Assembly (NCBI RefSeq): GCF_964213995.1
Contig: NC_135808.1
Coordinates: forward strand, 23,374,001-23,438,000
DNA: 64,000 nucleotides
Source: Mustelus asterias
Lineage: Eukaryota
Reading direction: 5' to 3'
The notes beneath the pieces were generated by a model. The model was not told where the DNA came from. It was given only the letters and a program-made list of their open reading frames with translations, and searched no databases. The translations under genes and the position numbers were made by a program. Each line of letters starts with the position of its first letter. Positions within the stretch are counted from its first letter, which is position 1. This document shows, in pieces, positions 28,051 through 54,600 of the stretch.

Positions 28051-30787
28051 ATTATATAATATTTTTTGTGTAATGTGCTGACCAGACTGTTTGCAGTGCT
28101 TCAGCTGTCGTCTATCTGGTATTGTTTACAGTTTTCGCAAAACCACTCTGCTCTGTGCCTTGGCTAATAAAGGAAAGCATGTTATATACCACCTTTACCT
28201 CATTTATTAACCTGTCCTGACACCTTTCCCAGTCTGTGGACATACACTCCTGGGTGCCTCTCTTCCTCCACATTATTCATTATCCTCCCATTTATTGGGG
28301 ATTCCCTTTGCCTTGTTAATCCTCCCAAAACCCATCACATTCTCCACCCTCTCAAACAGACTATTTTATTTATTTTTTTATCATTTAGGGCACAGACTAT
28401 TTTATTGGTCTCCAAAATGCTCTACTTTCCTTATCCTTTTCTCTTCAGGGACTGATAGGACATCCTTGGAGGTGCCTTGATTTTTCTTTCCAGTATTTTG
28501 TCGTGCCCCCTCTTTTCTTTCCTAATCTTCCTCTCTCTGTATCTCTTCCAGGTTTCTGCATTATTAGGCGTGAGGGGTCAGATGGATTTTGCTGCTGGTA
28601 GATGTGGGAGTTGGATGGATCTGATGGGTTTTGTTGGGGGGGCGACGGGGCGGTTTCCAGCTCTGCTGGCTTTGCCTCACTCTATAGTGATGTATTTCTT
28701 TCTCGTCTCCAGTGCATTCCAGGGTTTGTAATCCAGGAACACCAGTTCCCAAACATAGTAGCAGGAGTGGATGAGAGAATCAGGGAAGATGTGATTTCAT
28801 CAAGGTGACAGCGACTGACTGATTCAAGCTCCACATATGTGATTCTGTTTAAATGGAACTGTGGTGATGGTTTGGAAGTAATTGCTATATCTGGAGCTGC
28901 ACTTTAAGCTATTCTGATCTGATCTGTTTATCCTGCACAGACGTGAGAGGGCGATCTTGCAAAAAATATTCTCAGTCCAGAAAGAGTATGAAAACGAGAG
29001 AGTTTCTGATCCGTCTTTTTGGTGAATCCAATTCTGCAATCTTATGCACTTAGAGCAGAAAAGAACCCCTAATCTGTTTCTTGCCTGTAGGGGGAGTGGG
29101 CAGGGCTTAAATCACCAGAATGCTGCCTGACAACAGCAGAGGACACCATTGTGCATGTGCAGGTCCCTCTGCTCTGAGCAACAGAGAAACCTGTCACTCA
29201 ACCTCTGCTGCTTTCACCAGGCCTCCATGGCCTAAACACGGACCTCCCCAGCTGCCACGGCGGTCTGTGGCCTCATGCGACCCCTGATGGTCGGACCAAT
29301 TGCCCCCGTGACACCCCACCTGCCCGGACAGATCAAACCTCGTGATCCCACCGCTCGGGCCGATTTCCCCTCCCAATCGCAATGCAGTAGGCCCCACTGC
29401 TTCCCCTCACCAAAGGCAAATACTGAGTGGCAGTCGCCTTCCCCCCCCCCCCCGCCGCCAAATTGCAAATGCAGAGTGTGCGGCACATCCCCTCCCATCA
29501 CCACTGATATTCCCACCACGGTTTGCTCCCCCAACAAATCAGGCTCCACACCCTTCACACTGCCAGAGTACCAGGCTTGGCACTGTCCACAAGGCACTCC
29601 CCCCCCCCCCCCCCGCCTCCCCACCCGCCAACTTCTCGGGATGGCTTCAACAGCCTCTGGATCCACTAGTGAGGCTATCGGGTTTTGCCCCGTTGTGATT
29701 CTCGCTGGAGTGAACCTCTCCCGTGAGGCCACAGAGACGAGAGCCCAGATGATTGCGCCGCGGGCTCGCTCATTTTGTTCAAAACAGGTTTTAAATGTAG
29801 TCAAGTATTTTATTCAGCCTCGCGCCGCAATGTGTGAGAAATCGGGAGCGAATCTCATCTGTATTGAACTCATGAATTCCAATATCTTCTGCCCTTTCCT
29901 GATTTTTTTCTTTTAATGTCTGCTTGTCATTGGTGAGTGTGTTTATGTCACATCCCCCATTCCCAAGCACTCTGTCTGGGGAAATAACAAACATTATTGA
30001 AATATCAGAGCTTTTGTATCAAACTGTCATCTGCAACTCCAAATGTCAAATCGCGGTAAATTTCCAATTCTTGTCACTGTTGGAAATATTGTTACACTTT
30101 GCAGTATTGGACACAATTGTTACCTGTGTGTGTGCGTGTGTTATTAAAACAACAGAAAAGGTTTATTCTGCTTGGAGCTGAATGGGTTAATTCTAAATTA
30201 GAACACGTTCGGTGAAGGAATTCACTGTCACCGCGATTTCAGAAAGAGACTGGGTTACAATGTTCTCAGAGTAATGGCGGTTTCAGCAGAACAAAGATAT
30301 TTCTTCAAGTCTTGTGGATTCACCATTTCAAACTGGATATTTCCGAATAAAAACCTTGGAGCAAAATGGATTAGAAGATAAAGTCCCAATTGTTCCCCAG
30401 GGTTGTTTTTAAATGGAGATTTTAAAAACAAGAATAATCCATGAACAATCACCTTCAATTAATTCCTGAATTTGAAATTACACTATTAAAGCTTAAAAAA
30501 AAACGACCCCACTCTGACAGATGTGAATTCGTATCTGGATTAGAGATCCCACATGTTTCACCCGTTTCAACAGAGTTTCATTGTAGCGGCAACAAGCTCC
30601 CAGTTTCAAAACTTTTAAACTGTTCTCCGCCTTTAGACCTCACCATTTTGAGGAAAACACAGAGTTGGAGCTGGTCTGAAGGAACAGCAACACAGAGCAT
30701 TCACACAGCCTTTTCTCATTCACTAACAGGAAGTTTACACACACACATCTGTCCACACAATTCTTTCTCACATCACTTCAAGTTTCA

Positions 30788-31670
30788 CATTTGGAGGAAA
30801 ATGTAACTGGATTGATTAGTCAGTTTGCGGACGACACAAAGGTTGGTGGATTTGCGGACAGCGATGAGGACCATCAGAGGATGCAGCAAGATATAGATCA
30901 GTTGGAGACTTGGGTGGAGAGATGGCAGGTGAAGTTTAATCCAGACAAATGTGAGGCAATGCATTTTGGAAGGTCTAATACAGATAGGAAATATACAGTA
31001 AATGGCAGAACCCTTCAGAGTATTGATAGCAAAGGGATCTGGGTGTACAGGTACACAGGTCACTGAAAGTGGCAATGCAGGTGGAGAAGGTAGTCAAGGC
31101 GGCATATGGCATGCTTACCTTAATTGGCTCTTGGAATATCGTGTTCCATTCTGGTCGCCACACTACCAGAAGGATGTGGAGACTTTGGAGAGAGTACAGA
31201 AAATATTTACCAGGATGTTGCCTGGTATGGAGGGCATTAGCTATGAGGAGAGGTTGGAGAAACTTGGTTTGTTCTCACTGGAGCGACGGAGGTTGAGGGG
31301 AGGCCTGATAGAAGTCGACAAGATTATGAGGGGCATGGACAGAGTGGATAGTCAGAAGTTTTTTCCCAGGGTGGAAGAGTCAATTACTAGGAGGCACAGG
31401 TTTAAGGTGCGAGGGGCAAGGTTTAAAGGAGATGTACGAGGCAGATTTTTTTTAAAAACAAAGAGTAGTGGGTGCCTGGAATTCGTGGCCAGGGGAGGGA
31501 GTGGAAGCGGGTATGGCAGTGACTTTTAAGGGGCGTCTTGACAAGTACATGAATGGGATGGGAATAGAGGGATATGATTCCCGGAAGGGTCGGGGGTTTT
31601 AGTTAAGTCAGGCAGCATGGTTGGTGCAGGCTTGGAGGGCCGAAGGGCCTGTTCCTGTGCTGTAATTTTC
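30788..31670 (+). mobile_element. CR1 LINE 3' fragment (duplicate at 48618..49500)
   Basis: FADDTKVGG, WQVKFNPDKC, RRRLRGGLIEV and a CR1 3' UTR. Confidence 0.87.
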
Positions 31671-32339
31671 TTGGCATATATTCCTATTCTCATGAAAGAG
31701 CATCTTATCCAAACTGACAGTTGGCCAAGGCCGGAATTGAACCCGCGTCCCTGGTACTGTGAGGCAGCAGCACTAACCACTGCCACTGTGTCACCCACTT
31801 GGACACAGGTTGCTTCACATCCTTTAGATCTGTGCACAGAACGGAGACATATTCATAAAGTAAAAGGAACGGTTGTTTGTTTGCAAATCAGGATATCTCT
31901 GAACATAAACAACCCGGTTGTTCACACAGTATTTTAAACTTTACTGTGAGTTTCTTTAATTGCTTTTTTCTAACCTGCTTCTGATATTCCACCAACCAGA
32001 CATCAACAGCCCATTTCTGAAAAGCAGCGAGATCCATTTCTTCATCCTGATTCAATAATCTAATCTTTGGCCTCACATCTCCGTGATCTCTCACTATTTG
32101 TTCCTTCCTGTCGACTTTCTCCCAAACATTCCAATCTCCCGACTCTGATCCAAGCATCAAATCTCCAAATACTGTTTCTTTGTGCACCATTTGACCTTTC
32201 AATTTAACTCTGCTCGATCAACTGTCCACTTTCCCAAATCACTTCCTTCCTGAACAAACACAGTAACTTCTCAAACAAGGCTCGGCAAGCTGAGACCTAT
32301 TTTTATCGTGATTGCTTCAATGGTACAAGGTTTAATATA

Positions 32340-32625
32340 AGTACAGGACACAGCTCACACACTGAGAGGGACAGTATCAGTACAGGACACAGCTCACAGA
32401 CTGAGAGGGACAGTATCAGTACAGGACACAGCTCACACACTGAGAGGGACAGTATCAGTACAGGACACAGCTCACAGACTGAGAGGGACAGTATCAGTAC
32501 AGGACACAGCTCACACACTGAGAGGGACAGTATCAGTACAGGACACAGCTCACAGACTGAGAGGGACAGTATCAGTATCAGTACAGCACAGCGCTCACAC
32601 ACTGAGAGGGACGCTATCAGTGCAG
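32340..32625. repeat. 39-bp minisatellite (about 7 units; about 5 units in the paralog at 50171..50370)
   Basis: AGTACAGGACACAGCTCACACACTGAGAGGGACAGTATC. Confidence 0.9.
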
Positions 32626-32637
32626 AACTGTGACCGG

Positions 32638-34820
32638 GATGCAGAATGATCTGGACAGGTTGAGTGAGTGGACAAATTGATGGCAGATGCAGTATAATTT
32701 GCATAAATGTGAGGTTATTCACTTTGGAAGCAAAAAAAAGGCAGATTACTATCTGAATGGTGTAAATTGGGGGATGGGAGTGTGAAGTAGGATTTGGGTG
32801 TCCTTGTGCATCAGTCACTGAAGGTAGGCACGCAGGTGCAGCAGGCGGTAAAGAAGGCAAATGGCATGTTCGCCTTCACTGCGAGAGGTTTTGAGTGCAG
32901 GGGCAAGGATGTGTTGTTGCAATTAAACAGGGCCTTGGTGAGGCCACACCTAGGGTATTGTGTGCAGTTTTGGTCTTTGTTTACTTGCAACAATGATGTG
33001 GAGATGCCGACGTTGGACTGGGGTAAACACAGTCAGAATTTTAACAACACCAGGTGAAGGTCCAACAGGTTTATTTAATGGCAAATGCCATCAGCTTTTA
33101 GGTGTCTGTTGCGATCCTCCTCCAGACGCTGAAAGATGCCTTCATAAGAGCAGGATATGGCGCTCGACTCATTGATCGACAGTTCCGACGCACCACAGCG
33201 AAAAACCGCACCGACCTCCTCAGAAGACAAACACGGGACTCGGTGGACAGAATACCCTTCGTCGTCCAGTAGTTCCCGGAGCGGAGAAGCTACGGCATCT
33301 CCTCCGGAGCCTTCAACATGTCATTGATGAAGATGAACATCTCGCCAAGGCCATCCCCACACCCCCACTTCTTGCCTTCAAACAACCACGCAACCTCAAA
33401 CAGATCATTGTCCGCAGCAAACTACCCAGCCTTCAGGAGAACAGTGACCATGACACCACACAACCCTGCCACAGCAACCTCTGCAAGACATGCCGGATCA
33501 TCGACACGGATGCCATCATCTCACGTGAGAACACCATCCACCAGGTACACGGTACATACTCTTGCAACTTGGCCAACGTTGTCTACCTGATACGCTGCAG
33601 GAAAGGATGTCCTGAGGCATGGTACATTGGGGAAACCATGCAGGTGCTACGACAACGGATGGATGAACACCGCTCGACAATCACCAGGCAAGACTGTTCT
33701 CTTCCTGTGGGGGAGCACTTCAGCGGTCACGGGCATTCAGCCTCTGATGTTCGGGTAAGCATTCTCCAAGGCGGCCTTCACGACACACGACAGCGCAGAG
33801 TCGCTGAGCAGAAACTGAGAGCCAAGTTCCGCACACATGAGGACGGCCTAAACCAGGATGTTGGGTTATGTCACACTATCAGTAACCCCCACAGCTTGCC
33901 TCCTGGACTTGCAGAATCTCACTGGTTGTCCTGTCTGGAGACAATACACATGTCTTTAACCTGTGCTTAATGCTCCCTCCACTCACATTGTCTGTATCTT
34001 TAAGACCTGGTTGGCTGTAGAGATTCGCATTCTAATCAGTATTCTGTAACTTGATTTTGTGTCTCTGAATGCCCTGTTTGAGAGCAGATTTCCACTCTGA
34101 CGAAGGAGCAGCGCTCCGAAAGCTAATGGCATTTGCTACCAAATAAACATGTTGGACTTTAACCTGGTGTCGTTAAAACTCTTATTGTGTTTACCCCAGT
34201 CCAACGCCGGCATCTCCACATTATTGTTGCAAGTAAACAGGGCCTTGGTGAGGCCACACCTCGAATATTGTGTGCAGTTTTGGTCTCCTTTTCTGAGGAA
34301 GGATGTTCTTGCTCTCGAGGGAGTGCAGCAAAATTACCAGGCTGATTCCGGGGATGGCGGGACTGATGTATGAGAAGAGATTGACTAGGTTAGGATTGTT
34401 TTCGCTGGAGTTCAGACGAATGAGGAGGGATCTCATAGAGACTTATAAAATTCTAACAGGACTAGAAAGGGTAAATGCAGGGAGGATATTCCCAATGGTG
34501 GGGGAGTCCCAAACCAGGGATCACAGCCTGAGGATTCAGGGTGGACCATTTAGGATTGAGGTGAGGAGACATTTCTTCACCCAAAGTGTGGTGAGCCTGT
34601 GGAATTCATTACCACAGGAAGTAGCTGATGCTAAAACATTGAATGTATTCAAGACGCAACTGGATAAAGCACTTGGCGAATGGGATCAAAGGTTATGGAG
34701 AAAAAGCAGGATTAGGCTATTGGATTGGATGATCAGCATGATTGTAATGAATGGCGGAGCAGACTCGAAAGGTCAAATGGCCTCCTCCTGCTCCTATCTT
34801 CTATGTTTCTGTGTTTCTAT
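32638..34820 (+). mobile_element. CR1 LINE 3' fragment interrupted by a Penelope-like element
   Basis: LVRPHL(G/E)YCVQFWS on both sides of the insertion; FRRMRRDLIETYKIL; TTCTATG tail. Confidence 0.85.
32994..34223 (+). mobile_element. Penelope-like element (GIY-YIG), 5'-truncated, with an inverted 3'-end copy at its 5' junction
   Basis: VVYLIRCRKGCPEAWYIGET; ends TGATGTGGAGATGCCG / CGGCATCTCCACATTA. Confidence 0.88.
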
Positions 34821-34984
34821 GGACCAATTCTTCCTGTTTCAGCTTTGCAGGTCCAAAATGCAGAGAGGTTACACTCAGATGAGGATTCTCTGGCAGCAGG
34901 TTGTTAACCAGACACAACTTGAGGCAAGACAGAGAGAGAATCAGGTTGCGTTGCCTTCATTTTCCAACTTTTTGCCCAAAGAGA

Positions 34985-35280
34985 CTCATGGAATGCCTAC
35001 AGAGCAGAAGAGGCCATTCAGCCCATTGAACCTGCACCAACAACAATCCCATCCAGGCCCTATTCCTGTAACCTCACATATATACCCTGTTAAACCCCCT
35101 GACATTAAGGGGCAATTTAGCATCACTAATCCACCTAACCAGCACATCTTTGGACTGTGGGAGGAAACCAGAGAACCCAGAGGAAACCCATGCAGACACA
35201 ATCAGTCACCCAAAGGTGGAATTGAATCTGGCTCCCTGGCACGGTGAGGCAGCAGTGCTGACCACTGTGCCATCATGGCA
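34985..35280 (-). mobile_element. HE1/V-SINE-like SINE (duplicate at ~52842..53137)
   Basis: tRNA-like head and core on the minus strand. Confidence 0.78.
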
Positions 35281-36244
35281 CCCCAATTCAATTCAAACCA
35301 GCAGTTTCAAAACTTAAAGTTTCTCCCTGCCATGTGATTTCCAGAACACCACGAGACTTTGCTTTTCAGTTTTATTACCCAGCAATTAAAGTGAATCCAG
35401 TTCAAAACTAGCAAACAACTCTTCCTCAAGTACCATACAGGTCAGGTGAAGGCAGGCTGGCTCCCTGTCCAAGGGGTATTTATGGCCCTCTTTTGAGAAA
35501 AAAACTCCAAGTCAGTATCAACTATCCGGACAATGCAATATGTTTCCATGTTTTATGAAAGATATGCGTTTCCCAACACATTGAATTGTCCCAGTGTCAT
35601 TCAGAAGTCCCTTATCTCCAATAATATTCCAGCAAATCTCCTCTGCACCCTCTCTAATACGTTGATATTCCTCCTAAAACACTATGACCAGAAGTGGGGT
35701 CAATTCTCCAGCTGGGATCTAATCAATATTTTATCAATGTTCAGCGTGATCTCCTTGCTTTTGTACTCTGTGCCTCTATTTATAAAGCAATGGGGTCCAG
35801 ATGCTTCTTTCACAGTCTCATCACACCTTCCTGCCAGCCTCATACTCACTCAGGTCTCTCTGTTCCTGCAATCCCTTTATAACTGTACCAATCAGTTTAC
35901 ATTACCTCTGTACATTCTTCTGCTCAAACTGCATCACTTCAAATACTTCACTGGATTGTATATCAGCTGCCCTGTGTCTGCCCATTTCACCAACCTGTCT
36001 AATGGAACATTGATTGTGTCTGGATGGGAGACAAAGTGATGGAAGTGAAGCTTCAGTTTCACAGAGTCTTTGTTCAGAGCCTGTCTGAAGTAACTGTGTT
36101 CAGTTCTGGACACCGCACCTCAGGAAGGGGAGATTGGTGTTGGAGAGGGTTCCGATCACCAGAATAATAAAAGGAGGTTAAATGAAAGAGGTTTTTATCC
36201 CCCAGAGTTTATCTGATTGGACAGTTCTCATTGAGGCAGTTTCT

Positions 36245-36307
36245 CAACCTGTTTGTTTCTATTCTGCCGGAGACTGATGACTCACTGAATCTCTTTATTC
36301 TGATTGG
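36245..36307 (+). promoter_or_regulatory. MHC SXY promoter module of gene C
   Basis: CAACCT (class I-type S box), CCGGAGACTGATGACTCA (X1/X2), CTGATTGG (Y). Confidence 0.72.
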
Positions 36308-36430
36308 TTTAAATCCTATTTTGTGTCCAATCAGATTGAGGCTCAGTGTAAACAGGGAAAGACAGAAGGAGTGAGTTGAGAAAATGGCCTTTTGTTTGAA
36401 AAAGAGTTTCCTCCAAATGTTTCTCCCAAC

Positions 36431-39400
36431 ATGAGGGAAGCAGCAATGATTGGACTGATAGAGCTGGTCCTTCTGTGTGGAGAGGTGTCTGCAGGTGAGT
36501 GATGGGGTGTGAGAGGGGCAATGCCAGGCTGGGTACTGGGGCATTAACCCTGGGTCAGTGAGTGATGGGGTGTGAGAGGGGCAAAGCCAGGCTGGGTACT
36601 GGGGCATTAACCCTGGGTCAGTGAGTGATGGGGTGTGAGAGGGGCAATGCCAGGCTGGGTACTGGGGCATTAACCCTGGGTCAGTGAGTGATGGGGTGTG
36701 AGAGGGGCAATGCCAGGCTGGGTACTGGGGCATTAACCCTGGGTCACTGAGTGATGGGGTGTGAGAGGGGCAATGTCAGGCTGGGTGGAGGCCTTGCTCT
36801 CGGTTTGGAATCAGTGTTTTGGGGTTCATGCCCTGATCTCTGTGTGTGTGTGTGTGTGTGTGTGAGGGTGTTGGTGTTTTTAGGGTGTCTATCCTGAATT
36901 CTCTCTCTCTCTATTCCAGGCTCTCACTCTCTCCGGTATTTCTTCACGGGAATGACTCCGATCCCGGGTTTCCCGGAGTTTGTGGCTGTCGGTTATGTGG
37001 ACGGTGTCCAGTTTGTTTTGTACGACAGCGATCGGAGGGAGCTGATCCCCCGGGAGCAGTGGATGGTGGAGAGCGAGGGTCCGGCAGCCTGGGAGCGGAA
37101 GAAGGATCTCGCACAGGAGCAGGAGATGTACTCCAAACTTACTATTCCACTGCTCATGACCCGCACCAACCAGACAGGAGGTGAGTGCTCACTCTCCCAG
37201 CACCCGGGGATCCAGGTGGGAATGAGGAGAAACCCAGAGTGGATCAGGAACCGGGAGCCAGAGGCTGATTGGCTGCGATTGGAGATGTGACAGGAAATGT
37301 GATTGGCTGTGAATGTGTGGAGGGATTGTTTCCAGGGAGGTCTGGCTCTGATTGGCTGTGTGTGAGGGGGGGGGGGGCAGAGTACTTGATGTTGATTGGC
37401 TGGTAGGATGAGATCGCCCAGTGAGACTAGTTCTGATTGGCTGTGCAGGTGGGATCGCCCATTGGGACTGTCTCTGATTGGCTGTTTGTGTTTCTGATCC
37501 TTAGGGATCCATGTTTACCAGCTGATGACTGGCTGTGACCTGAGGGATGATGGGACCACGAGTGGATTCAACCAAAGGGGATGGGACGGAGATGATTTTA
37601 TCAGCTTCGACAAGGATCACATGGTGTGGGTGACCCCGGTGCCCTGGGGAGAGATCACCAAAAACAAGTTGGACAGGAGCACAGTCGACATTCAGCGATG
37701 GAAACATTACCTGGAGGTGGAGTGTATCGAGTGGCTGAGGAAATACCTGGAGTACGGACAGAAAGAATTGAGAGTCTGTGAGTGAGGGGGGAGTGAGAGT
37801 TGGTGAGTGAGGGGGGGGAGTGAGAGTCGGTGAGTGAGGGGTGAGTGAAAGTCGGTGAGTGAGGGGGGGAGTGAGAGGCGGTGAGTGAGGGGGGAGTGAG
37901 AGTCGGTGAGTGAGGGGGGAGTGAGAGTCGGTGAGGGAGGGAGGGAGCGAGAGTCGGTGAGTGAGGGGGGAGTGAGAGTCGGTGAGTGAGGGGAGTGAGA
38001 GTCGGTGAGTGAGGGGGGAGTGAGAGTCAGTGAGTGAGGGGGGAGTGAGAGTCGGTGAGTGAGGGGGGAGTGAGAGTCGGTGAGTGAGGGGGGAGTGAGA
38101 GTCGGTGAGTGAGGGGGGAGTGAGAGTCGGTGAGTGAGAGGGGAGTGAGAGTCGGTGAGTGAGGGGGGAGTGAGAGTCGGTGAGTGAGGGGGGAGTGAGA
38201 GTCGGTGAGTGAGGGGGGAGTGAGAGTCGGTGAGTGAGGGGGGAGTGAGAGTCGGGGAGTGAGAGTCGGTGAGTGAGGGGGGAGTGAGAGTCGGTGAGTG
38301 AGGGGGGAGTGAGAGTCGGTGAGTGAGGGGGGGTGAGAGTCGGTGAGTGAGGGGGGAGTGAGAGTCGGTGAGTGAGGGAGGAGTGAGAGTCGGGGAGTGA
38401 GAGTCGGTGAGTGAGGGGGGAGTGAGAGTCGGTGAGTGAGGGGGGAGTGAGAGTCGGTGAGTGAGGGGAGTGAGAGTCGGTGAGTGAGGGGGGAGTGAGA
38501 GTCGGTGAGTGAGGGGGGGTGAGAGTCGGTGAGTGAGGGGGGAGTGAGAGTCGGTGAGTGAGGGGGGAGTGAGAGTCGGTGAGTGAGGGGGGAGTGAGAG
38601 TCGGTGAGTGAGGGGGGAGTGAGAGTCGGTGAGTGAGAGTCGGTGAGTGAGAGTCGGTGAGTGAGGGGGGAGTGAGAGTCGGTGAGTGAGGGGAGTGAGA
38701 GTCGGTGAGTGAGGGGGGAGTGAGAGTCGGTGAGTGGGGGGGGGTGAGAGTCGGTGAGTGAGGGGGGAGTGAGAGTCGGTGAGTGAGGGGGAGTGAGAGT
38801 CGGTGAAGGGGGTGATGCCGGGACTCTTATCTCGAGGTTCCTGTACTGACTCCTCTTTCTTTCTCTCTCAGTTGCCCCCGTCGTGTCCTTTACCCGTCTG
38901 GGTGATTCTAACCGGCTGTCCTGTGCCGTCACCGGGTTTTACCCTCAAGCCATCGAGGTGAATGTGTGGAGAAACGGAGTGATGATTGATGAGACTCTGT
39001 CCAGTGGGATCTTACCCAATCACGACAGCTCCTACCAGATCCGGAAATGGGTCGAGTTTGATCCAGAGGACCAGGCCGAGTATTCCTGTCGGGTGGAACA
39101 CAGCGGGATGAAGGAGACACTGGTGGTGATTTACGGTAAGACTGTTTCTCACTGTTAGAGAGGACCCAGCCTCAGACCAGGATCACAGGAGGGAGGGTCA
39201 GTGCTGAGCTGTCAACCCAGGATATATAGAGAGGGAAATAAATCTTATTCAATGCGTTATATATCATGGTTCCACAGTGCAACGTGATACAGCGTATCAT
39301 TGGATATTGGGATCGCACTGGACCTGGTGTAACATTGGACACAAGAGTAGGTCTGGGCCTGGTGTATTCTGGGATATTACAGTATGGTGGGGCCCAGTGA

Positions 39401-42378
39401 ACCCTGGGATATTGCAGTAGTACAGACCGTGGTATATCCTGAGATACTCTCGTAGGACACATCCCAGTGAACCCTGGGATATTGCAGTGGTACAGACCGT
39501 GGTGTATCCTGAGATATTCTCGTAGGACAAAAACCAGTGTATCCTGGGATGTTGCAGTGTGTCAGGGTCTGGTGTATCCTGGGATATTACAGGAGGTTGG
39601 GCACCGTGGAATATCAGAGGATGGAGAGAGCCTGGTGTATCCAAGAAACAATGCTTTTCACTGTGTACCAATACATGTGACAATAATAAATCACATCAAA
39701 TATTACAGTAGGACTGGACCCAGTGCATCCTGGAAGTTTGCTTCAGTCAGATTAAGATCAGTATTCAGAGAAATAATGGAATTCCTTCTATTGGAGACAA
39801 TTCATGAAAATCTAGAATCAAATACTATAACAATGAATATTCAGCATGGATTTTGAAATGGAAAATCTTGTTTTACTCCAATTAGTGGATTTTTTGAGGA
39901 TGTAACAAAGGGAATAGACAATGGTAATGTAATAGATATAATATCATATAATTTTTTTAATGTAATAGAAAAGGGGGTTCGTGATGGACTGATTGACAAG
40001 GTGAAAGCATGTGGAGTTAGGGGATGAGTGACAGAATGGATCACTCACTGACTTTGGGACAGAAAACAGAGAGTGTGAGTAAAGGGTGTTTCAGAGTTAC
40101 AGAAAGTGTTCCACAAGGATCAGTGCTGGGATCACCGCTGTTCACAAGTTACACTCCATAACTTGGATATTGGAATCAAAAATACCATTTCTTAATTTGC
40201 AGATAACATCAAATTGGGAGAATTATTTGATTTTGAGGAGAACTGGAATAAATTAATAGGACATGAATAAACTTGAACAAATAGTTGGTAAATAAAGTTC
40301 AGCACAGTTAAACGTGAGGTATTTTTCAGTTAACGATGAATAGGGAGGGTTGAGGAACAAAGGGATCTTGATGTACAAATACACCAATCAGTAAACATAG
40401 AGTTACAGGTTAGACAATAAACAAAATACAATCGAAAACCAGGTTTGATTTCTCCAGGGATAGAATTGTAAAGTAGTGATTTTATTGCTAAATCTGTATC
40501 AAACCTTGGTTAGACCACATTTAAAGACCGTGTGCAGTTCCGGTCACCATTTCATAAAAAGGATATAGAGTCAGGGGAGAGAGTGTGGAGAAGATTTACA
40601 GAGATGATTCCAGAAATGAGTGGGTGGACATCTCAGGAAAGGATTGACCGGCTGGGTCTCTGCTCTCGGGAAAACAGAAGGCTGAGGGTTGACCGAATCG
40701 AGGATTTAAAATTAGGAAAGTTTTTTTTATAGGCCAGACACATCGAGAGTGTTCCTCTTGTGGGAAGAGCATATCCAGTGGCCATCAATACAAGAAACCC
40801 AATGGGGAATTCATGAGAAACCTCTTCACCCAAAGAGTGATGAGAATGTGGAGCTCGCTGCCACAGGGGGTGGCTGAACTGAACAGTATAGTTTAAGGGG
40901 AGGATAGACAAGCAAATGAGGGAAAGGGGAATAGAGTTAAAATGGTTGAATTAGATGAGGAATGATGGGAGAAGGCTCAAGTGGAACATAAATACCAGTA
41001 TCAACTAGATGGGCCGGAAGGCCATTTTCTATGTTGTATATCCTGTGTTTCCTGATTCACTCTCACTCTGATTCTCTCTCACATTTCTCTTTCTTTCACT
41101 CTGATTCACTCTTTCATTCTGTCTCTCTGATCTTTCTCTGTCTCTCATTCTCTCTCTTCCTCACTCTTAGTTGCTCATCCTCTCTCTCATTCTCTCCCAC
41201 TCGCTCACATTCTATTTCTCTCTGAGTCTCACTGTTCCCTCTCCCTGATTCACTCAGTCTCTCACATTCTGTCTCTCTGATTCTCACTTTTTTCTCTCCC
41301 TGACTCACTCAGTCTCTCTGATTCTCTCTCTCTAACAGAACCAAAGTCTCGCTCCCAGGTTGCTGTTACTGTCGGGATTGTGGTCGGGGTCCTCGTGCTC
41401 ATCGCTCTCATCATTGTGGCTGTCGTCATCTACAACAAGAAAGGTAGGAATTGGAGGGAAAAGAGCGGTGGGTGAACTGTAGTGGATCCAGGCAGTCCGG
41501 GAGGCTGGAATTGATTCGTGCCATGACTAGCTTTTCGAATCATTTCATAACGATGGATGTCAGAGCCACCGGATGACAGCTCACTGGGGGCAGGGATTCT
41601 GGGAGAGTATTCCAGGGTGGCGGTGGCTCAGGCTGTGGATCTCAGATTGGTGTGGGGGCGGGGATGGGGGGCTGGTGGTTGTACAGAGTGGGTGGAAGAG
41701 CTGCAGGTTTGGGATAGGGATGGTAAGGGGCTCATGATAAAGGATGAGTGTCTGAGAATTGTGGGAAGGGCCTCAAATTGGGTGAGGAGTTCAGGGTATC
41801 AGTGAGGGCTCAGCTAAGAGTGAGGGTCTAGGGACAGGACGGGAGTGATGGTCCAGGGTCAGGGTGGGAGTGAGGGTCTTGTGTCAGGATGGGAGTGAGG
41901 GTCTCTGGTTGTGGTGGGAGTGAGGGTTCAGAATTGTGTTGTTGGGGCTCAGTGCGAGTGAGAGTTCCAGCCTCTGTCTCTGATTTTCTCTCAGTCTCGT
42001 CACTCACTGAGCATTCCATGTTTTACAGGGAGAGGGAAGAGCAACTACAATCCTGCAAATAGTAAGCTGATCATCAAACATTGTCCCTGTGCAACTGTGT
42101 ACATCATTGTTCATTCTGTTTCAACGTTAGTTTGTGTGTGTGTGTGTGCGTGCATCGTGCGTTTCTGTGTGGGTGTGTGGGCTTCTGTGTGTCGCCGTTA
42201 GTATGGGTGTGTGAGAACCTCTTTCTCTGTGTCTCTCTGTCTCTCTCATTCTCTCTTTATCATATTCACAGTCTCTGCCTCTGTCTCTCTGATGTTGAAC
42301 AATGTTTTAACACCTCTTCTTCCTTTAACAGCTTCTGATGATGGGGATTCCTCATCCAGATCCTCCACAAGTACCTGA
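36431..42378 (+). CDS. MHC class I heavy chain, probably non-classical (gene C); exons 36431..36494, 36920..37180, 37505..37777, 38872..39135, 41339..41443, 42029..42061, 42332..42378
   Basis: Same 7-exon structure and sizes, open frame, canonical class I motifs and cysteines. Confidence 0.93.
36495..36786. repeat. 63-bp tandem repeat in intron 1 of gene C (4 full units plus a partial)
   Basis: Same unit as 18463..18822. Confidence 0.9.
37778..38806. repeat. ~25-bp G-rich minisatellite filling intron 3 of gene C (about 40 units)
   Basis: (GTGAGAGTCGGTGAGTGAGGGGGGA)n. Confidence 0.95.
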
Positions 42379-42769
42379 GGTATGAACTGTGTTGATAAAT
42401 ATTGGGAGCTGATCCTTCTAACTGGGATATTCCCGCTGGATTTAGCTGTACAATCTGGTGGGTGGGCTGTGAGCTCAGTGTCTGTCTCTCGCTCTATAGT
42501 CACTAAAGAGCAGCTCATCCAATCCAACACTGAGCTTTGAGACTGGCCTTCTGGAGACGGCTGTTCCTGTACAGTCTGAGGGTGGAGACATTGTGGGTGT
42601 TGAGGTGTCGAGACATCCGGAAACATCTCACCCTGGACAGCCTCCTCTGAGCTGCTCAATTTCCTGAAGGAATTTGTAACTCCCAGACTTTTCCCTGAAG
42701 TTGGTCACTGAGCTGTGCCGCTCCCACAGGTTTTTATTTTAGTCGTGTTTTGTGATGAGTCTGATCATT

Positions 42770-43744
42770 AGCTGGATGTTTGGGGCGTGGAGTAGAGTTT
42801 AGGAGTTAAGCTGGTGATTGGTGGTCTGATGGGTTTCGCTGGTGTTTTGTATTCTATTGGGTTTTGCTGGTGTTTGGGGCTCTGATGGGTTTAGCTGGTG
42901 TTTGGGGTCCTGATGGGTTTAGCTGGTGTTTGGGGATCTGATGGGTTTTGCTGGTGTTTGGGGGTCTGATGGGTTTTGCTGGTGTTTGGGGCTCCGATGG
43001 GTTTTGCTGGTGTTTGGGGCTCTGATATGTTTTGCTGGTGTTTGGGGGTCTGATGGGTTTAACTGGTGTCAGGGAGTCTGATGGGTTTAGCTGGTGTTTG
43101 GGGCTCTGATGGGTGTAGCTGGTGTTTGGGTTTCTGCTGGGTTATCTGGTGTTTGGAGGTCTGATGGATTGAGCTGGTGTTTGGGGCTCTGATGGGTTAG
43201 CTGATGCTTGGGGTCTGATGGGTTTTGCTGGCGTTTGGGGGTCTGATGGGTTTTGCTGGTGTTTGGGGTCTGATGGGATTTGCTGGTGTTTGGGGCTCTG
43301 ATGGGTTGAGCTGGTGTTTGGGGCTCTGATGGGTTCAGCTGGTGTTTGGGGCTCTGATGGGTTTCGCTCGTGTTTGGGGCTCTAATGGGTTTTGCTGGTG
43401 TTTGAGGGTCCGATGGGTTTCGCTGGTGTTTGGGGATCTGATGGGTTTTGTTGGTGTTTGGGGCTCTGATGGGTTTAGCTGGTGTTTGGAGGTCTGATGG
43501 GTTTTGCTGGTGTTTGGGGCTCTGATGGGTTTAGCTGGTGATTGGTGCTCTGATGGTTTAGCTGGTGTTTGGGGCTCTGATGGGTTTAACTGGTGTTTAG
43601 GGCTCTTGTGGGTTTTGCTGGTGTTTGGGGCTCCGAAGGGTGTTGCTGGTGTTAGGGGCTTTTGTGGGTTTAGCTGCTGTTTGGGGCTCTGATGGGTTTC
43701 GCTGGTGTTTCGGGGGTCTGATGGGTTTTGCTGGTGTTTGTGGT
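42770..43744. repeat. ~29-bp satellite downstream of gene C (uninterrupted)
   Basis: (CTGATGGGTTTAGCTGGTGTTTGGGGCT)n. Confidence 0.92.
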
Positions 43745-44652
43745 CATAGAGTCATAGAGGTTTATAGCATGGAAACAGGCCCTTCGACCCAACTTGTCCA
43801 TGCCGCCCTTATATGTTTTTAAAAACCCCTAAACTAATCCCAATTGCTCGCATTTGGCCCATATCCCTCTATACCCATCGTACCCATGTAACTATCTAAA
43901 TGCTTTTGAAAAGATAAAATTGTACCTGCCTCTACTACTACCTCTGGCAGCTTGTTCCAGACACTCACTATCCTCTGTGTGAAAAAATTGCGCCTCTGGA
44001 CAGTTTTGCATCTCTCCCCTCTCACCTTAAACCTATGCCCTCTAGTTTTAGACTCCCCGACCTTTGGGAAAAGATATTGACTATCTACCTTGTCTATGCC
44101 CCTCATTATTTTATAGACCTCTAGAAGGTCACCCCTTAGCCTCCTACACTCCAGAGAAAAAGTCCCAGTCTATTCAGCCTCTCCTCAAAACTCAATCCAT
44201 CAAGTCCCGGTACCATCCTAGTAAATCTTTTCTGCACTCTTTCTAGTTTAATAATATCCTTTCTATATTAGGGTCGACAGAATTGCACACAGCATTCCAA
44301 GTGTGGCCTTACCAATTCCGTGTACAACTTCAACAAGACGTCCCAACTCCTGTATTCAATGTTCTGACCAATGAAACCAAGCATGCCGAATGCCTTCTTC
44401 ACCACTCTGTCCACCTGTGACTCCACTTTCAAGGAGTTATGAACATGCACTCCGAGATCTCTTTGTTCTGTAACTCTCCCCAACGCCCGACCATTAACTG
44501 AGTAACTCCTGCCCTGGTTCAATCTACCAAAATGCATTACCTCGCATTTGTCGAAATGAAACTCCATCTGCCATTCGCCGGCCCACTGGCCCAATTGATC
44601 AAGATCCCGCTGCAATTGGAGATAACCTTCCTCACTGTCCACCATGCCACAA
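43745..44652 (-). mobile_element. CR1 LINE 3' fragment (same insertion as 1297..2212 and 62806..63720)
   Basis: ORF 44268..44645 nearly identical to 1309..1680. Confidence 0.87.
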
Positions 44653-47600
44653 ATCTGGGTCTGATGGGTTTTGCTAGTGTTTGGGGTCTGCTGGGTTTAG
44701 CTGGTGTTTGGAGGTCTGATGGGATTTGCTGGTGGTGTGTGGTTGGAATGTTGAAGGAAATAATATTTATGATTGAGAGCGAGGCCATTCAGCCCATCAT
44801 ATCCCTTCCTGTTCATGAAGAACTCTCCTGCTTAATATCACCTCCTGTACTCGATCTGTAGCTCTGTCGATCACAGCTCTTCAACTCGACGTCCAAGAAT
44901 GGATTCAATGTGGTGAGAGTTTCTGCGTCTACCATCCTTTCAGACAGTGCTTCAGCTGTCGTCTATCTGGTGTTGTTACAATTCTAGCAAAACCATTCTG
45001 CTGTCTGTCTCAACTGATGAAAGAAAAGCATGTTATGTACCTTCTTTACCATGTAATTAACCTGTCCTGAAAACTTTCCCAATCTGTGGACATGCACTCC
45101 TGGATCCCTCTGATCCTCCACATTACTCATTATCCTCCCATTTACTGGGGAATCCCTTTGCCTTGTTCATCCTCCCGAAATCCATCACCTCTCACTGCTC
45201 CAGATTGAATTCCATTTTCCAATGCTTTTCCCAACTGCTCAGGCCATCTCTATCTTCCTGCAATCTGAAGCTTTCCTCTTCACTGACACCTACACAGATA
45301 ATATTTGTACCTCTGTAAACTCTTTATCATTCCCGCTGCATTTGAATCTAAATGATTCACATGAACTACAAAAAGTGAGGGTGTGAGTGCTGGGTCCTGT
45401 GGAACCCCCACTGGTAACAAGAAGTCTTGTTTAGGTCTGAGAAGTCTCTCAACATCAGGTTAAAATCCAATTCGGAATCACGAGCTTTCGGAGAACTGCT
45501 CCTTCGTCAGATGAGTGATGGTCAGTCCAACGCCGGCATCTCCACATCATGGGCATCATTCTAGTCGCAATCAACCCCTTACCCCTTTGCTTCCTGCCAC
45601 TGAGCTAATTTGGGGTCTGATTTGTCAATGTCTCTTGGATCTCGATGAGTTTTACATTTCTGACCAGCCTGCCATGTGGGACCTTGTCCAAAGCATTATT
45701 AAAATGCATGTTGACCTTGTCCACCTCACTGCCCTCATCAACCCTCCTTCTCACCTCTTCCAAATTTTCAGTCAGAAAGCTTGAGATGAGCTCCCCTTAA
45801 ATCCACGCTAACTTCCCTCGACTAATCTGTGCCTTTCTCGATGAAGGTTTGTACCGTTCCTCATAATTGGTTCCAACAATGTTCCCACTGCCGAAGTTAC
45901 ACTAACTGGTGTATAATTACTCAGATTGCCCCTTCTCTTTTCAATCCATGGTGTAATGTTGGCAGTCATTTAATCTTCTTCCACACTCCTGTAGCCCGGG
46001 AGGAATGATTCTGATGATCAGAGCCTCTGCAATTCCCTCCTTTGCTTCTTTTAACCCGGTGATTTACCATCTTTCAAAGTTATAAAATCCCTGAATACAT
46101 CATCTCTTACAGTGTTTATCTGATGCAGTAATTCACACACTTCTTCTTTAACTGCAATGTCAGCATTGCTCCCTGTTTCCCAAAGACAGTGGCAATGTAT
46201 TTATTCACAACCTCAACACATTCTCCCTCCTCTCTCACAGACTATCTTATTGGTGTCCACCAGGCCTTACTCTTTCCTTATCCTTTTCTCTTCAGGTACT
46301 TAAAGAACATCCTTGGAGGTTCCTTGATTTTTCTTGCCAGTATTTTGTCGTGCCCCCTCTCCTTTCCCAGTATTCCTCTCTCAGTATCTCTTCCAGGTTT
46401 CTGCATTGTTAGGCGTGAGGGGTCTGATGGATTTTGCTGCTGGTTTTTGTGGGGGTCTGATGGGTTTTGTTGGGTGTGTTCCAGCTCTGCTGGCTTTGCC
46501 TCAGTTTTTCTTTCTCATCCCCAGTGCCCTCCAGTGCATTCCAGGGTTTGTAATCTAGGAACACCAGTTCCCAAGAACAGCAGCGGGAGAGGATGAGAGA
46601 ATGAGGGAAGATGTGATTTCATCAAGGTGACAGCGACCGACTGATTCAAGCTCCACATATGTGATTCTGTTTAAATGGAACTGTGATGATGGTTTGGAAG
46701 TAATTGCTATATCTGGAGCTGCACTTTCTGAGCTATTCTGATCTGAGCTGCTTATTCTGCACAGACACTAGAGGGCGATCTTATGAAAAATATTCTCTGT
46801 CCAGAAAGAGCATGAAAATGGGAGAGTTTCTGATCCGTGTTTCAGGCGTATCCAAATCTACAATCTTATGCACTTGTTTCTCACCCTTGTAGGGGGAGGG
46901 GGCAGGTCTTAAATAACCAGAATGCTGCCTGAAAGCAGCAGAGGACACCATTGCGCATCTGCAGGTCCCTCTGCTCTGAGCTGCAGAGAGACCTGTCACT
47001 CAGCCTCTGCTGCTTTCACCAGACCTCCATGGCCTAAACACGGACTCCCCAGCTGCCACGGCGGTCCGTGGCCTAATGCAACCCCTGATGGTCGGACCAA
47101 TTGACCCCGTGACACCCTACATGTCCGGACAGACCAAACCGCGCCTCTGGGACAGATTGAACCCCGTGACCCCCCTCCCCCTAATTCGGACCGACTTTCC
47201 CTGTCCATCCCACCACCGATCGCAATGCAGTAGCCCCCGCTACTTCTCTCACTGATGGCAAATACTCAGTGGCAGTAGCCCCCCCACACCCCAAATTGCA
47301 AATGCATAGCGTGCAGCGCCCCGCCCCCATCACCACAGGTTGGTCCCACCCCAGTAGAGCCCCCCTCCAAATAATCAGGCTCCACACCCTTCCCACTCCC
47401 ACTGCCTGGTGCGCACTTCGAAGATACCAGGCTGGCACTGCCCGCAAGGCACTCCCCCCAACCTCTCGGGGTGGCTTCAATGGCTTCTGGATCCACGAGC
47501 GAGGCATCGGGTCTGGTCCCTGTTGTGATTCTCGCTGGAGTGAACCTCTCCCGTGAGGCCACAGAGACGAGAGCCCAGATGATTGCGCCGCGGGCTCGCT

Positions 47601-50600
47601 CATTTTGTTCAAAACAGGTTTTAAATGTAGTCAAGTATTTTATTCAGCCTCGCGCCGCAATGTGTGAGAAATCGGGTGCGAATCTCATCTGTATTGAACT
47701 CATGAATTCCAATATCTTCTGCCCTTTCCTGATTTTTTCTCTTCATGTCTGTTATTCATTGGTGAGTGTGTTTGTGTCACATCTCCCATTCCCAAGCACT
47801 CTGTCTGGGGAAATAACAAACATTATTGAAATATCAGAGCTTTTGTATCAAACTGTCATCTGCAACTCCAAATGTCAGATCGCGGTAAATTTCGAATTCT
47901 TGTCACTGTTGGAAATATTGTTACACTTTGCAGTATTGGACACAATTGTTACCTGTATGTGTGTGTGTGTGTTATTAAAACAACAGAAAAGGTTTATTCT
48001 GCTCGGAGCTGAATGGGTTAATTCTAAATTAAAACACGTTTGGTGAAGGAATTCACTGTCACCGCGATTTCAGAAAGTGACTGGGTTACAATGTTCTCAG
48101 AGTAATGGCGGTTTCAGCAGAACAAAGATATTTCTTCATCTCTTGTGGATTCACCAATTCAAACTGGATACTTCCGAATAAAAACCTTGGAGCAAAATGG
48201 ATTAGAAGATAAAGTCCCAATTGTTCCCCAGGGTTGTTTTTAAATGGAGATTTTAAAAACAAGAATAATCCATGAACAATCACCTTCAATTCATTCCTGA
48301 ATTTGAAATTACACCATTAAAGCTTAAAAAAAATGACCCCACTCTGACAGATGTGAATTTGTATCTGGATTAGAGATCCCACATGTTTCACCCATTTCAA
48401 CAGAGTTTCATTGTAACGGCAACAAGCTCCCAGTTTAAAAACTTTTAAACTGTTCTCCCCCTTTAGACCTCACCATTTTGAGGAAAACACAGAGTTGGAG
48501 CTGGTCTGAAGGAACAGCAACACAGAGCATTCACACAGCCTTTTCTCATTCACTAACAGGAAGTTTACACACACACATCTGTCCACACAATTCTTTCTCA
48601 CATCACTTCAAGTTTCACATTTGGAGGAAAATGTAACTGGATTGATTAGTCAGTTTGCGGACGACACAAAGGTTGGTGGATTTGCGGACAGCGATGAGGA
48701 CCATCAGAGGATGCAGCAAGATGTAGATCAGTTGGAGACTTGGGTGGAGAGATGGCAGGTGAAGTTTAATCCAGACAAATGTGAAGCAATGCATTTTGGA
48801 AGGTCTAATACAGATAGGAAATATACAGTAAATGGCAGAACCCTTCAGAGTATTGATAGCAAAGGGATCTGGGTGTACAGGTACACAGGTCACTGAAAGT
48901 GGCAATGCAGGTGGAGAAGGTAGTCAAGGCGGCATATGGCATGCTTACCTTAATTGGCTCTTGGAATATCGTGTTCCATTCTGGTCGCCACACTACCAGA
49001 AGGATGTGGAGACTTTGGAGAGAGTACAGAAAATATTTACCAGGATGTTGCCTGGTATGGAGGGCATTAGCTATGGGGAGAGGTTGGAGAAATTTGGTTT
49101 GTTCTCACTGGAGCGACGGAGGTTGAGGGGAGGCCTGATAGAAGTCGACAAGATTATGAGGGGCACGGACAGAGTGGATAGTCAGAAGTTTTTTCCCAGG
49201 GTGGAAGAGTCAATTACTAGGGGGCACAGGTTTAAGGTGCGAGGGGCAAGGTTTAAAGGAGATGTACAAGGCAGATTTTTTTTAAAAACAAAGAGTAGTG
49301 GGTGCCTGGAATTCGTGGCCGGGGGGAGGGAGTGGAAGCGGGTATGGCAGTGACTTTTAAGGGGCATCTTGACAAGTACATGAATAGGATGGGAATAGAG
49401 GGATATGTTTCCCGGAAGAGTAGGGGGTTTTAGTTAAGTTAGGCAGCATGGTTGGTGCAGGCTTGGAGGGCCGAAGGGCCTGTTCCTGTGCTGTAATTTT
49501 CTTGGCATATATTCCTATTCTCATGAAAGAGCATCTTATCCAAACTGAAAGTTGGCCAAGGCCGGAATTGAACCCGCGTCCCTGGTACTGTGAGGCAGCA
49601 GCGCTAACCACTGTGCCAGCGTGTCACCCACTTGGACACAGGTTGCTTCACATCCTTTAGATCTGTGCACAGAACGGAGACATATTCATAAAGTAAAAGG
49701 AACAGTTGTTTGTTTACAAATCAGGATATCTCTGAACATAAACAACCCGGTTGTTCACACAGTATTTTAAACTTTACTGTGAGTTTCTTTAATTGCTTTT
49801 TTCTAACCTGCTTCTGATATTCCACCAACCAGACATCAACAGCCCATTTCTGAAAAGCAGCGAGATCCATTTCTTCATCCTGATTCAATAATCTAATCTT
49901 TGGCCTCACATCTCCGTGATCTCTCACTATTTGTTTCTTCCCGTCGATTTTCTCCCAAACATTCCAATTTCCCTACTCTGATCCAAGCATCCAATCACCA
50001 AATACTGTTTCTTTGTGCACCATTTGACCTTTCAATTTAACTCTGCTCGATCAACTGTCCACTTTCTCAAATCACTTCCTTCCTGAACAAACACTAACTT
50101 CTCAAACAAGGCTCGGCAAGCTGAGACCTATTTTTATCGTGATTGCTTCAATGGTACAAGGTTTAATATAAGTACAGGACACAGCTCACACACTGAGAGG
50201 GACAGTATCAGTACAGGACACAGCTCACACACTGAGAGGGACAGTATCAGAACAGGACACAGCTCACACACTGAGAGGGACAGTATCAGTAATGGACACA
50301 GCTCACACACTGAGAGGGACAGTATCAGTAAAGCACAGCGCTCACACACTGAGAGGGATGCTATCAGTGCAGAACTGTGACCGGGATGCAGAATGATCTG
50401 GACAGGTTGAGTGAGTGGGCAAATTGATGGCCGATGCAGTATAATTTGCATAAATGTGAGGTTATTCACTTTGGAAGCAAAAAAAAGGCAGATTACTATC
50501 TGAATGGTGTAAATTGGGAGAAGGGAGTGTGCAGTAGGACTTGGGTGTCCTTGTGCATCAGTCACTGAAGGTAGGCACGCAGGTGCAGCAGGCGGTAAAG

Positions 50601-50740
50601 AAGGCAAATGGCATGTTCGCCTTCACTGCGAGAGGTTTTGAGTGCAGGGGCAAGGATGTGTTGTTGCAATTAAACAGGGCCTTGGTGAGGCCACACCTAG
50701 GGTATTGTGTGCAGTTTTGGTCTTTGTTTACTTGCAACAA

Positions 50741-51976
50741 TGATGTGGAGATGCCGACGTTGGACAGGGGTAAACACAGTCAGAATTTTAACAACACCAG
50801 GTGAAGGTCCAACAGGTTTATTTGATGGCAAATGCCATTAGCTTTTAGGTGTCTGTTGCGATCCTCCTCCAGACGCTGAAAGATGCCCTCATAAGAACAG
50901 GATATGGCGCTCGACTCATTGATCAACATTTCCGACGCGCCACAGCAAAAAACCGCACCGACCTCCTCAGAAGACAAACACGCGACACGGTGGACAGAAT
51001 ACCCTTCGTCGTCCAGTACTTTCCCGGAGCGGAGAAGCTACGGCATCTCCTCCGGAGCATTCAACATGTCATTGATGAAGATGAACATCTCGCCAAGGCC
51101 ATCCCCACACCCCCACTTCTTGCCTTCAAACAACCGCACAACCTCAAACAGATCATTGTCCGCAGCAAACTACCCAGCCTTCAGGAGAACAGTGACCATG
51201 ACACCACACAACCCTGCCACAGCAACCTCTGCAAGACGTGCCGGATCATCGACACGGATGCCATCATCTCACGTGAGAACACCATCCACCAGGTACACGG
51301 TACATACTCTTGCAACTTGGCCAACGTTGTCTACCTGATACGCTGCAGGAAAGGATGTCCTGAGGCATGGTACATTGGAGAAACCATGCAGGCGCTACGA
51401 CAACGGATGAATGAACACCGCTTGACAATCACCAGGCAAGACTGTTGTCTTCCTGTTGGGGAGCACTTCAGCGGTCACGGGCATTCAGCCTCTGATGTTC
51501 GGGTAAGCATTCTCCAAGGCGGCCTTCACGACACACGACAGCGCAGAGTCGCTGAGCAGAAACTGAGAGCCAAGTTCCGCACACATGAGGACGGCCTAAA
51601 CCGGGATGTTGGGTTTATGTCACACTATCAGTAACCCCCACAGCTTGCCTCCTGGACTTGCAGAATCTCACTGGTTGTCCTGTCTGGAGACAATACACAT
51701 CTCTTTAACCTGTGCTTAATGCTCCCTCCACTCACATTGTCTGTATCTTTAAGACCTGGTTGGCTGTAGAGATTCGCATTCTAATCAGTATTCTGTAACT
51801 TGATTTTGTGTCTCTGTATGCCCTGTTTGAGAGCAGATTTCCACTCCATCTGACGAAGGAGCAGCGCTCCGAAAGCTAATGGCATTTGCTACCAAATAAA
51901 CATGTTGGACTTTAACCTGGTGTCGTTAAAACTCTTATTGTGTTTACCCCAGTCCAACGCCGGCATCTCCACATTA
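50741..51976 (+). mobile_element. Penelope-like element with an uninterrupted C-terminal ORF (RT thumb, linker, GIY-YIG)
   Basis: 261-aa ORF 50849..51634 with the CHSNLCKTC linker and the GIY-YIG motif. Confidence 0.9.
51846..51882 (+). ncRNA. Minimal type I hammerhead ribozyme in a Penelope 3' repeat
   Basis: CCAT CTGACGA A GGAGC AGC GCTCC GAAA GC TA ATGG: perfect stems I and II, palindromic AGCT stem III. Confidence 0.68.
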
Positions 51977-54101: not shown

Positions 54102-54164
54102 CAACCTGTTTGTGTCTATTCTGCCGGAGACTGATGACTCACTGAATCTCTTTATTCTGATTGG
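54102..54164 (+). promoter_or_regulatory. MHC SXY promoter module of gene D
   Basis: CAACCT, CCGGAGACTGATGACTCA and CTGATTGG with the same spacing as gene C. Confidence 0.72.
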
Positions 54165-54286
54165 TTTAAATCCTATTTTGTGTCCAATCAGATTGAGGCT
54201 CAGTGTCAACAGGGAAAGACAGAAGGAGTGAGTTGAGAAGATCACCTTTCTTTGAAAAAGAGTTTCCTCCAAATGTTTCCCCCAAC

Positions 54287-54566
54287 ATGAGGGAAGCAGC
54301 AATGATTGGACTGATAGAGCTGGTCCTTCTGTGTGGAGAGGTGTCTGCAGGTGAGTGATGGGGTGTGAGAGGGGCAATGCCAGGCTGGGTAATGGGGCAT
54401 TAACCCTGGGTCAGTGAGTGATGGGATGTGAGAGGGGCAATGCCAGGCTGGGTACTGGGGCGTTAACCCTGGGTCAGTGAGTGATGGGGTGTGAGAGAGG
54501 CAATGCCAGGCTGGGTGGAGGTCTTGCTCTCGGTTTGGAATCAGTGTTTGGGGTTCATGCCCTGAT

Positions 54567-54600
<34 letters not shown>

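Follow-up and report, generated by a model that had tools for sequence, protein, structure and literature searches.

A junction-spanning splice-donor minisatellite in intron 3 of nonclassical MHC class I genes of the shark Mustelus asterias

Human F7 contains in intron 7 a 37-bp VNTR whose first unit spans the exon-intron boundary, with the donor reiterated in the units that follow (Borensztajn et al. 2006, PMC1557585). F7 minigenes used the most upstream site (consensus value 74) exclusively, against downstream sites with values of up to 91. Only perfect sites competed, donor choice was unchanged with 1 to 12 units, inactivation of the first site activated the second, and mutation of G triplets had no effect. 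The same paper cites junction-spanning minisatellites with 10 to 25 pseudo-donors in CBS intron 13, IFI6 (6-16) intron 2, LMNB2, and PDGF intron 4. Up to two of the next pseudo-sites are used in CBS and IFI6, and the first site only is used in LMNB2 and PDGF. Intron 18 of human ABCA7 carries a 25-bp VNTR with a unit that starts at the donor (De Roeck et al. 2018, PMC5954066). That report gives retention of one unit at 2 ± 1%, which is NMD sensitive, introduces a premature stop, and is independent of VNTR length, and skipping of exon 19, the next exon, which increased with length across alleles of up to about 10 kb. In mammalian work, runs of G enhance a donor when downstream of it and silence it when within the exon, and in TP53 intron 6 G-runs keep a weak donor in use despite a strong cryptic competitor.

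We present here an analysis of a 64-kb stretch of the Mustelus asterias genome (the window), which contains four MHC class I heavy-chain genes, in tandem or inverted copies, named A, B, C, and D. The leader, alpha1, alpha2, alpha3 (C1-set), transmembrane, and two cytoplasmic exons have an open frame in all four. Exons 1 to 4 lie at 15082-11105 on the minus strand in gene A (exon 3 at 12083-11811) and, on the plus strand, at 18399-21386 in gene B, 36431-39135 in gene C, and 54287-56305 in gene D. Gene C comprises exon 1 (leader, 36431-36494), exon 2 (alpha1, 36920-37180), exon 3 (alpha2, 273 nt, 37505-37777), exon 4 (alpha3, 264 nt, 38872-39135), exon 5 (transmembrane, 41339-41443), exon 6 (cytoplasmic, 42029-42061), and exon 7 (cytoplasmic, with the normal stop, 42332-42379), all on the plus strand, followed by a 3′ UTR exon from about 42500. 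Its last intron (region 42380-42500) is in the 3′ UTR, and the normal stop ends one base ahead of that intron. Pfam assigned exons 2 and 3 of gene C to MHC_I (E values of 1.6e-18 and 1e-23, respectively) and exon 4 to C1-set (8.8e-16).

Judged by identities of 100% in exon 1, 100% in the intron 3 tail, and 96.7% in the intron 4 head, genes C and D are sister duplicates. They are located in tandem duplicated blocks (28391-36660 and 46236-54516, 92-97% identity), and the region downstream of gene A is an inverted copy (1-8409 against 39700-45952 and 56870-64000). Across the four genes, the alpha1 and alpha2 exons are 82-93% identical and the alpha3 and transmembrane exons 97-100%, a contrast which suggests that the groove is under diversifying selection or that alpha3 has been homogenized. 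The alpha2 domain of gene D has extra Cys residues.

A PDB search with alpha2 of gene C placed 6LUP at the top (E value of 6e-33; runner-up, 2.8e-24), which we take to be the nurse shark classical class I molecule. Classical class Ia molecules anchor peptides through residues Y7, Y59, R84, T143, K146, W147, Y159, and Y171. When the translations were compared by eye with 6LUP, Y59 was found to be lost in all four genes, and W147 (L in gene C), T143, and K146 in three of the four. The conserved peptide anchors of classical class Ia (UAA) are only partly retained in genes A to D, which we class as nonclassical because several of these residues are lost. Two sources (PMC10751288, PMC12562908) describe UBA as a class Ib family of elasmobranchs that derives from UAA and is multicopy; UEA is likewise multicopy. 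Marks of UBA are grouping with named UBA sequences on a tree and a cluster with c4 and rxrb at its flanks. With four copies in 64 kb, 6LUP as the top match to alpha2, and anchors partly lost, the genes resemble the multicopy, UAA-like UBA cluster and are shark-type nonclassical class I genes, probably of the UBA lineage.

TRF returned 64 rows across the window, among them a 25-bp junction-spanning minisatellite in gene C at 37769-38806 on the plus strand (41.5 copies, 90% matches, score of 1532). This array begins 9 nt inside exon 3 and occupies most of the 1,094-nt intron 3. As the first-pass annotation had stated, the unit copies the exon 3 end and the donor; it contains the final 9 nt of the exon (in the gene A form, TGAGAGTCG). 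In 20,000 circular dinucleotide shuffles of the unit, the exon-end 9-mer followed by GT appeared in 0.24% and some G/GTRAGT (the slash marking the exon-intron boundary) in 12%. The rarity of the former identifies the unit as a true junction copy; the bare donor hexamer is within chance. Beyond the first donor, TCT/GTGAGT, gene C has 40 GTRAGT sites, 39 of them with G at -1; the context is TCG/ in 36 sites and TTG/, GGG/, GCG/, and TCA/ in one each. The intron contains 33 runs of at least five G, the length of the G-run differs among units, and short units of 14 nt are also present. A unique tail (38803-38871, plus strand) holds a degenerate last copy (TCG/GTGAAG), a pyrimidine tract, and the acceptor. 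With a first unit that lies over the exon-intron boundary (37769 versus 37777), and a donor in the repeated units, this is a junction-spanning splice-donor minisatellite of the F7/ABCA7/CBS type. Its copy number differs between paralogs. The literature searched, which took in few subscription papers and none of the primary work on shark class Ib, held no description of the shark array.

The array of gene A (11435-11819, minus strand) has 15.5 copies by TRF, 13 downstream donors, and TCG/GTGAGT as its first donor; that of gene D (55481-55982, plus strand) has 20.7 copies, 13 downstream donors, and TCT/GTGAGT. Earlier estimates of about 15 units in A and 40 in C agree with these counts. The figure of 20 for D matches the TRF value yet overstates the donors, because the TRF total includes a 172-nt degenerate G-rich segment, without an internal donor, that breaks the array. 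Gene B, with an intron 3 of 83 nt (21040-21122, plus strand), was correctly described as lacking the 25-mer array, but its count of extra donors is one rather than zero: an 8-nt junction duplication (21040-21055) gives a second GTRAGT donor, TTG/GTAAGT, at +9, behind an in-frame GTGAGT. This second donor is out of frame, and its use would shift the reading frame. A DNA-like contig from run X18 (depth of 6.17) is without the 8 nt of gene B. The arrays of A, C, and D contain 15 to 33 runs of at least five G, the first at +9 to +12, and no G-run lies within the 60 nt upstream of the first donor. The G4Hunter-type mean is 1.19-1.42 in A, C, and D and 0.0 in B. The intron 3 tails of the genes are 91-100% identical.

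Other repeats are found at intron 1. A second donor-initiated array, with 63-bp units, occupies the start of this intron in genes B (18463-18822, 5.7 copies), C (36495-36786, plus strand, 4.6 copies), and D (54351-54516, 2.6 copies), and gene A has one copy of this type at +63. These arrays contain weak TCA/GTGAGT copies; in gene C, the array starts at the donor and these pseudo-donors score 6/9 (by the score defined below). The end of gene A intron 1 (12890-13211, minus strand) carries, next to the acceptor, a 50-bp array of 6.8 copies that repeats a branch-like CTGAT and a pyrimidine tract, apparently without AG.

Donor strength was scored as the number of matches to MAG/GTRAGT (nine positions). 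The first donor of C and D scores 6/9, and most downstream copies, TCG/ or TTG/GTGAGT, score 7/9, which bears out the earlier observation that the copies match better; the exon 6 donors of these genes likewise score 6/9. The T at -1 is common to C and D and turns Val into Phe at the first alpha3 residue. It was probably acquired in one event, because C and D are sister genes with 100% identical intron 3 tails, and two independent donor drifts were rejected for the same sister relationship. The T may be allele specific.

Reading past the first donor in A, C, and D leads to an in-frame TGA at +6 (37783-37785, plus strand, in gene C), which precedes every downstream donor; it arises because the letters GTGAGTGA stand at a phase-1 intron. 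The stop proposed in the first pass is confirmed in these three genes, and gene B has a longer tail instead. Likewise, the ending with a free Cys is correct for C and D (V-C-E-stop), where the Cys codon exists only through the -1 T, and does not apply to A (V-G-E-stop) or B. Gly-Glu-stop likewise follows the donor of exon 1 in B, C, and D, for which reason the stop was rejected as a designed feature. Neither AATAAA nor ATTAAA occurs in intron 3 of any of the four genes, and intron 3 polyadenylation was rejected on this basis. Four introns lie downstream of the read-through stop. A stop located upstream of further introns marks a transcript for NMD. Because of the four downstream introns and the lack of an intron 3 poly(A) signal, a transcript spliced at a repeat donor is an expected NMD target, one of the two products originally envisaged, and is unlikely to yield the other, a secreted protein. 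Only by escaping NMD could such a transcript give a secreted alpha1-alpha2 protein.

Contigs of the gene family provided junctions for comparison. From 21 listed runs, four (X19, X21, X1, and X18) were compared with the repeat-free gene B (20300-21600, likeness of 80); X19 and X21 come from a single sample of organism G, and X1 is from organism A. As contigs rather than raw reads, they drop rare forms and carry no proportions, and the listing covers 24 of the 83 loose ends and 32 of the 266 pieces. X19, X21, and X1 were taken as RNA-like because exon-exon joints are present. They contain spliced joints, together with loose ends of the exon 1-2, 2-3, and 4-5 types, and X18 covers introns. Eight joints are listed, three of which end at exon 4. 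The joint from 21037 to 21122, with one letter between, has depths of 189.9 in X19 and 131.6 in X21, and the joint from 21035 to 21122, with three letters between, has a depth of 393 in X1; the cut is at the first donor in both. A joint from 20879 to 21122 accounts for 415 + 160 + 52 = 627 of 629 letters and fits, by length, a diverged paralog that would be normally spliced. An X21 loose end shows a C/D-like exon 3 end with G, cut at the first donor and joined at 21122.

Array letters appear in none of the eight joints listed, and none starts at the +9 donor of gene B. All first-donor junctions among the rows listed have G at -1, and the T/GT form of C and D in the window is not among them. 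Contigs of X21 and X19 include exon 3 letters that match gene C, and one X21 loose end is of the D type. None of the 24 loose ends listed joins exon 3 to exon 5. The zero depth of X19, X21, and X1 in the gene B intron 3 bin 21048-21091 reflects a part without cover and is not evidence of splicing.

Two features of X19 stand apart from these junctions. One loose end behind 21037 consists of the exon 3 end and 31 letters, with an in-frame stop within a few codons. The 31-letter tail has no match in the window with up to three mismatches allowed, and the form is possibly an alpha1-alpha2-only transcript of another paralog or an artifact. The loose ends at 20961 and 21035 belong to a contig, flanked by 255 letters, of a class I gene that is more distant and may be the classical one.

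We consider it most probable (roughly 75%) that the array is a near-neutral minisatellite born of slippage, with splicing at the first donor and any leak removed by NMD. The minisatellite would have grown by slippage at the boundary between exon 3 and intron 3 in a nonclassical class I gene and would have been inherited, or spread by conversion, among the paralogs A, C, and D. In these three genes, one TGAGA motif lies in the exon at -9 and another in the intron at +17, a spacing of 25 nt that equals the unit length; in gene B, the motif occurs at -9, +14, and +21. Slippage between such TGAGA repeats may have seeded the array and may continue to resize it. The low-complexity, GTGA-rich composition of the junction, together with its short repeats and the 14-nt units, would fit slippage. 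The 64 TRF rows of the window and the 63-bp arrays of intron 1 mark the region as prone to repeats of this sort.

Use of the first donor, as seen in the contigs for the G/GT form of the family, presumably extends to the T/GT form of C and D. The first donor would be favored because it is the most upstream functional site and because exon 3, already 273 nt, becomes longer with each unit. Mammalian work suggests a further reason, in that a G-run lies just upstream of every downstream copy and only downstream of the first donor; this step is unproven because mutation of G triplets in F7 was without effect. The G-runs had previously been cited as hnRNP H/F-type motifs; they are present, and in their downstream position they would, if active at all, favor the first donor. 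A small leak to the second donor would carry the stop at +6 and be directed to NMD, and the array would be close to neutral for protein output. The precedents for this explanation are mammalian.

Other explanations give the array a larger role. The G-to-T change at -1 in C and D could have made the first donor leaky, allowing the second or third copy (G/GTGAGT) to take a measurable share of splicing, with those transcripts degraded and surface class I lowered; the effect would depend more on the -1 allele than on copy number. The scores of 6/9 for the first donor and 7/9 for the copies are in line with this, as are the published cases in which CBS and IFI6 use the next pseudo-sites and the second F7 site is active once the first is inactivated; moreover, a C/D-like junction with G is among the rows listed and T/GT is not. 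However, that absence among the rows listed is no evidence, the F7 data show first-site use only despite a gap of 74 versus 91, exon 6 donors here also score 6/9, and the RNA-like contigs do include exon 3 letters of the C type. We give a leak of this kind a modest chance. Only a small chance is assigned to the joint proposition that the -1 change of C and D and array length set the surface level of nonclassical class I, with a real share of transcripts using repeat donors and being destroyed, and that the G form can be regained through recombination with the array, as the exon end of C/D type carrying G might suggest.

Alternatively, longer G-rich arrays may reduce expression or cause the next exon to be skipped more often, as is reported for ABCA7 exon 19 with increasing VNTR length. 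Loss of alpha3, whose 264 nt are flanked by phase-1 introns, would keep the reading frame and would give a membrane alpha1-alpha2 form like MR1B and HLA-G4, which are without alpha3 (PMC7508857, PMC5664004), and the G4Hunter-type means of A, C, and D, compared with 0.0 in B, are compatible with this route. We nevertheless regard it as very unlikely, given that no exon 3-to-exon 5 junction was seen among the loose ends listed and that the shark array is at most 1 kb, against ABCA7 alleles that reach about 10 kb. Highly improbable, finally, is the first-pass reading, in which the array is a selected dial for output of secreted alpha1-alpha2 protein bearing a free Cys. The Cys-Glu-stop ending of the C/D read-through is compatible with it, and MR1 has a putative soluble alpha1-alpha2 isoform, MR1C, but its expression was poor and it was inactive in the study concerned. 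A and B lack the Cys, which traces to a single shared change, exon 1 is followed by the same stop, and with no poly(A) signal in intron 3 and a stop four introns from the end, NMD is expected. The accompanying claim that copy number tunes membrane against soluble or degraded output finds no support here: the contigs show the first donor in use, and in F7 and ABCA7 donor choice was unaffected by length.

As a candidate route to soluble class I, intron 4 is more plausible than the intron 3 array and the better lead. The intron 4 head of gene C (39136-39275, plus strand) contains a read-through tail to a stop and an AATAAA at 39237-39242; the corresponding heads are at 21387-21530 in B, about 11104-10965 (minus strand) in A, and 56306-56445 in D. 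In all four genes, seven codons, the last of them Cys, are read through to the stop, and AATAAA is at +102. The first 108 nt are 87-97% identical in all six pairs, and identity after about +140 is 28-50%, C-D excepted; gene B is 51-71% identical to the other genes in introns 2, 5, and 6. This pattern fits candidate intronic polyadenylation that would yield a soluble alpha1-alpha2-alpha3 protein, HLA-G5-like in outcome. It fits equally a putative gene-conversion tract around the 97%-identical alpha3 exon, because the intron 3 tail is also 91-100% identical. An X21 contig ends approximately 15 nt past the intron 4 AATAAA, and cover of intron 2 is similarly low (depth of 8-29 versus 18-43); its end is no sign of an RNA end because contigs cannot show RNA ends.

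The repeat is of an already known kind, described in human F7, ABCA7, and CBS, and is found here in a shark MHC class Ib cluster. The four paralogs form a natural series in which exon 4 and its acceptor are near-identical and the number of extra donors is 1, 13, 13, or 40. The series has both strong (G) and weak (T) first donors and offers a test of position versus strength in donor choice outside mammals. If the weak form does leak in proportion to array length, it would constitute a heritable dial on class Ib expression, and the -1 allele and array length together would make expression mutable in this multigene family of the immune system.

Among class I molecules, MR1C, MR1B, and HLA-G4, -G5, -G6, and -G7 are forms from which alpha3 and/or the anchor is removed by alternative splicing or intron read-through, without donor arrays; HLA-G5 resembles the intron 4 lead and not the intron 3 array. 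As cited in the F7 paper, the minisatellites of CBS, IFI6, LMNB2, and PDGF are like the shark array in spanning a junction and in having many pseudo-donors. The array resembles that of ABCA7 in having a 25-bp unit at the donor and, by prediction in the shark, a premature stop and NMD upon use of the second donor; such use was measured in ABCA7 (about 2%), whereas the shark array is known from sequence and contigs. As in F7, the first unit spans the boundary and the donor is repeated. F7 has 5 to 9 units of 37 bp with identical donors, whereas the shark arrays have 13 to 40 copies of 25 bp, and the copies in C and D are stronger than the first donor. Unlike the F7 repeat, the shark array belongs to a multigene family whose paralogs differ in copy number.
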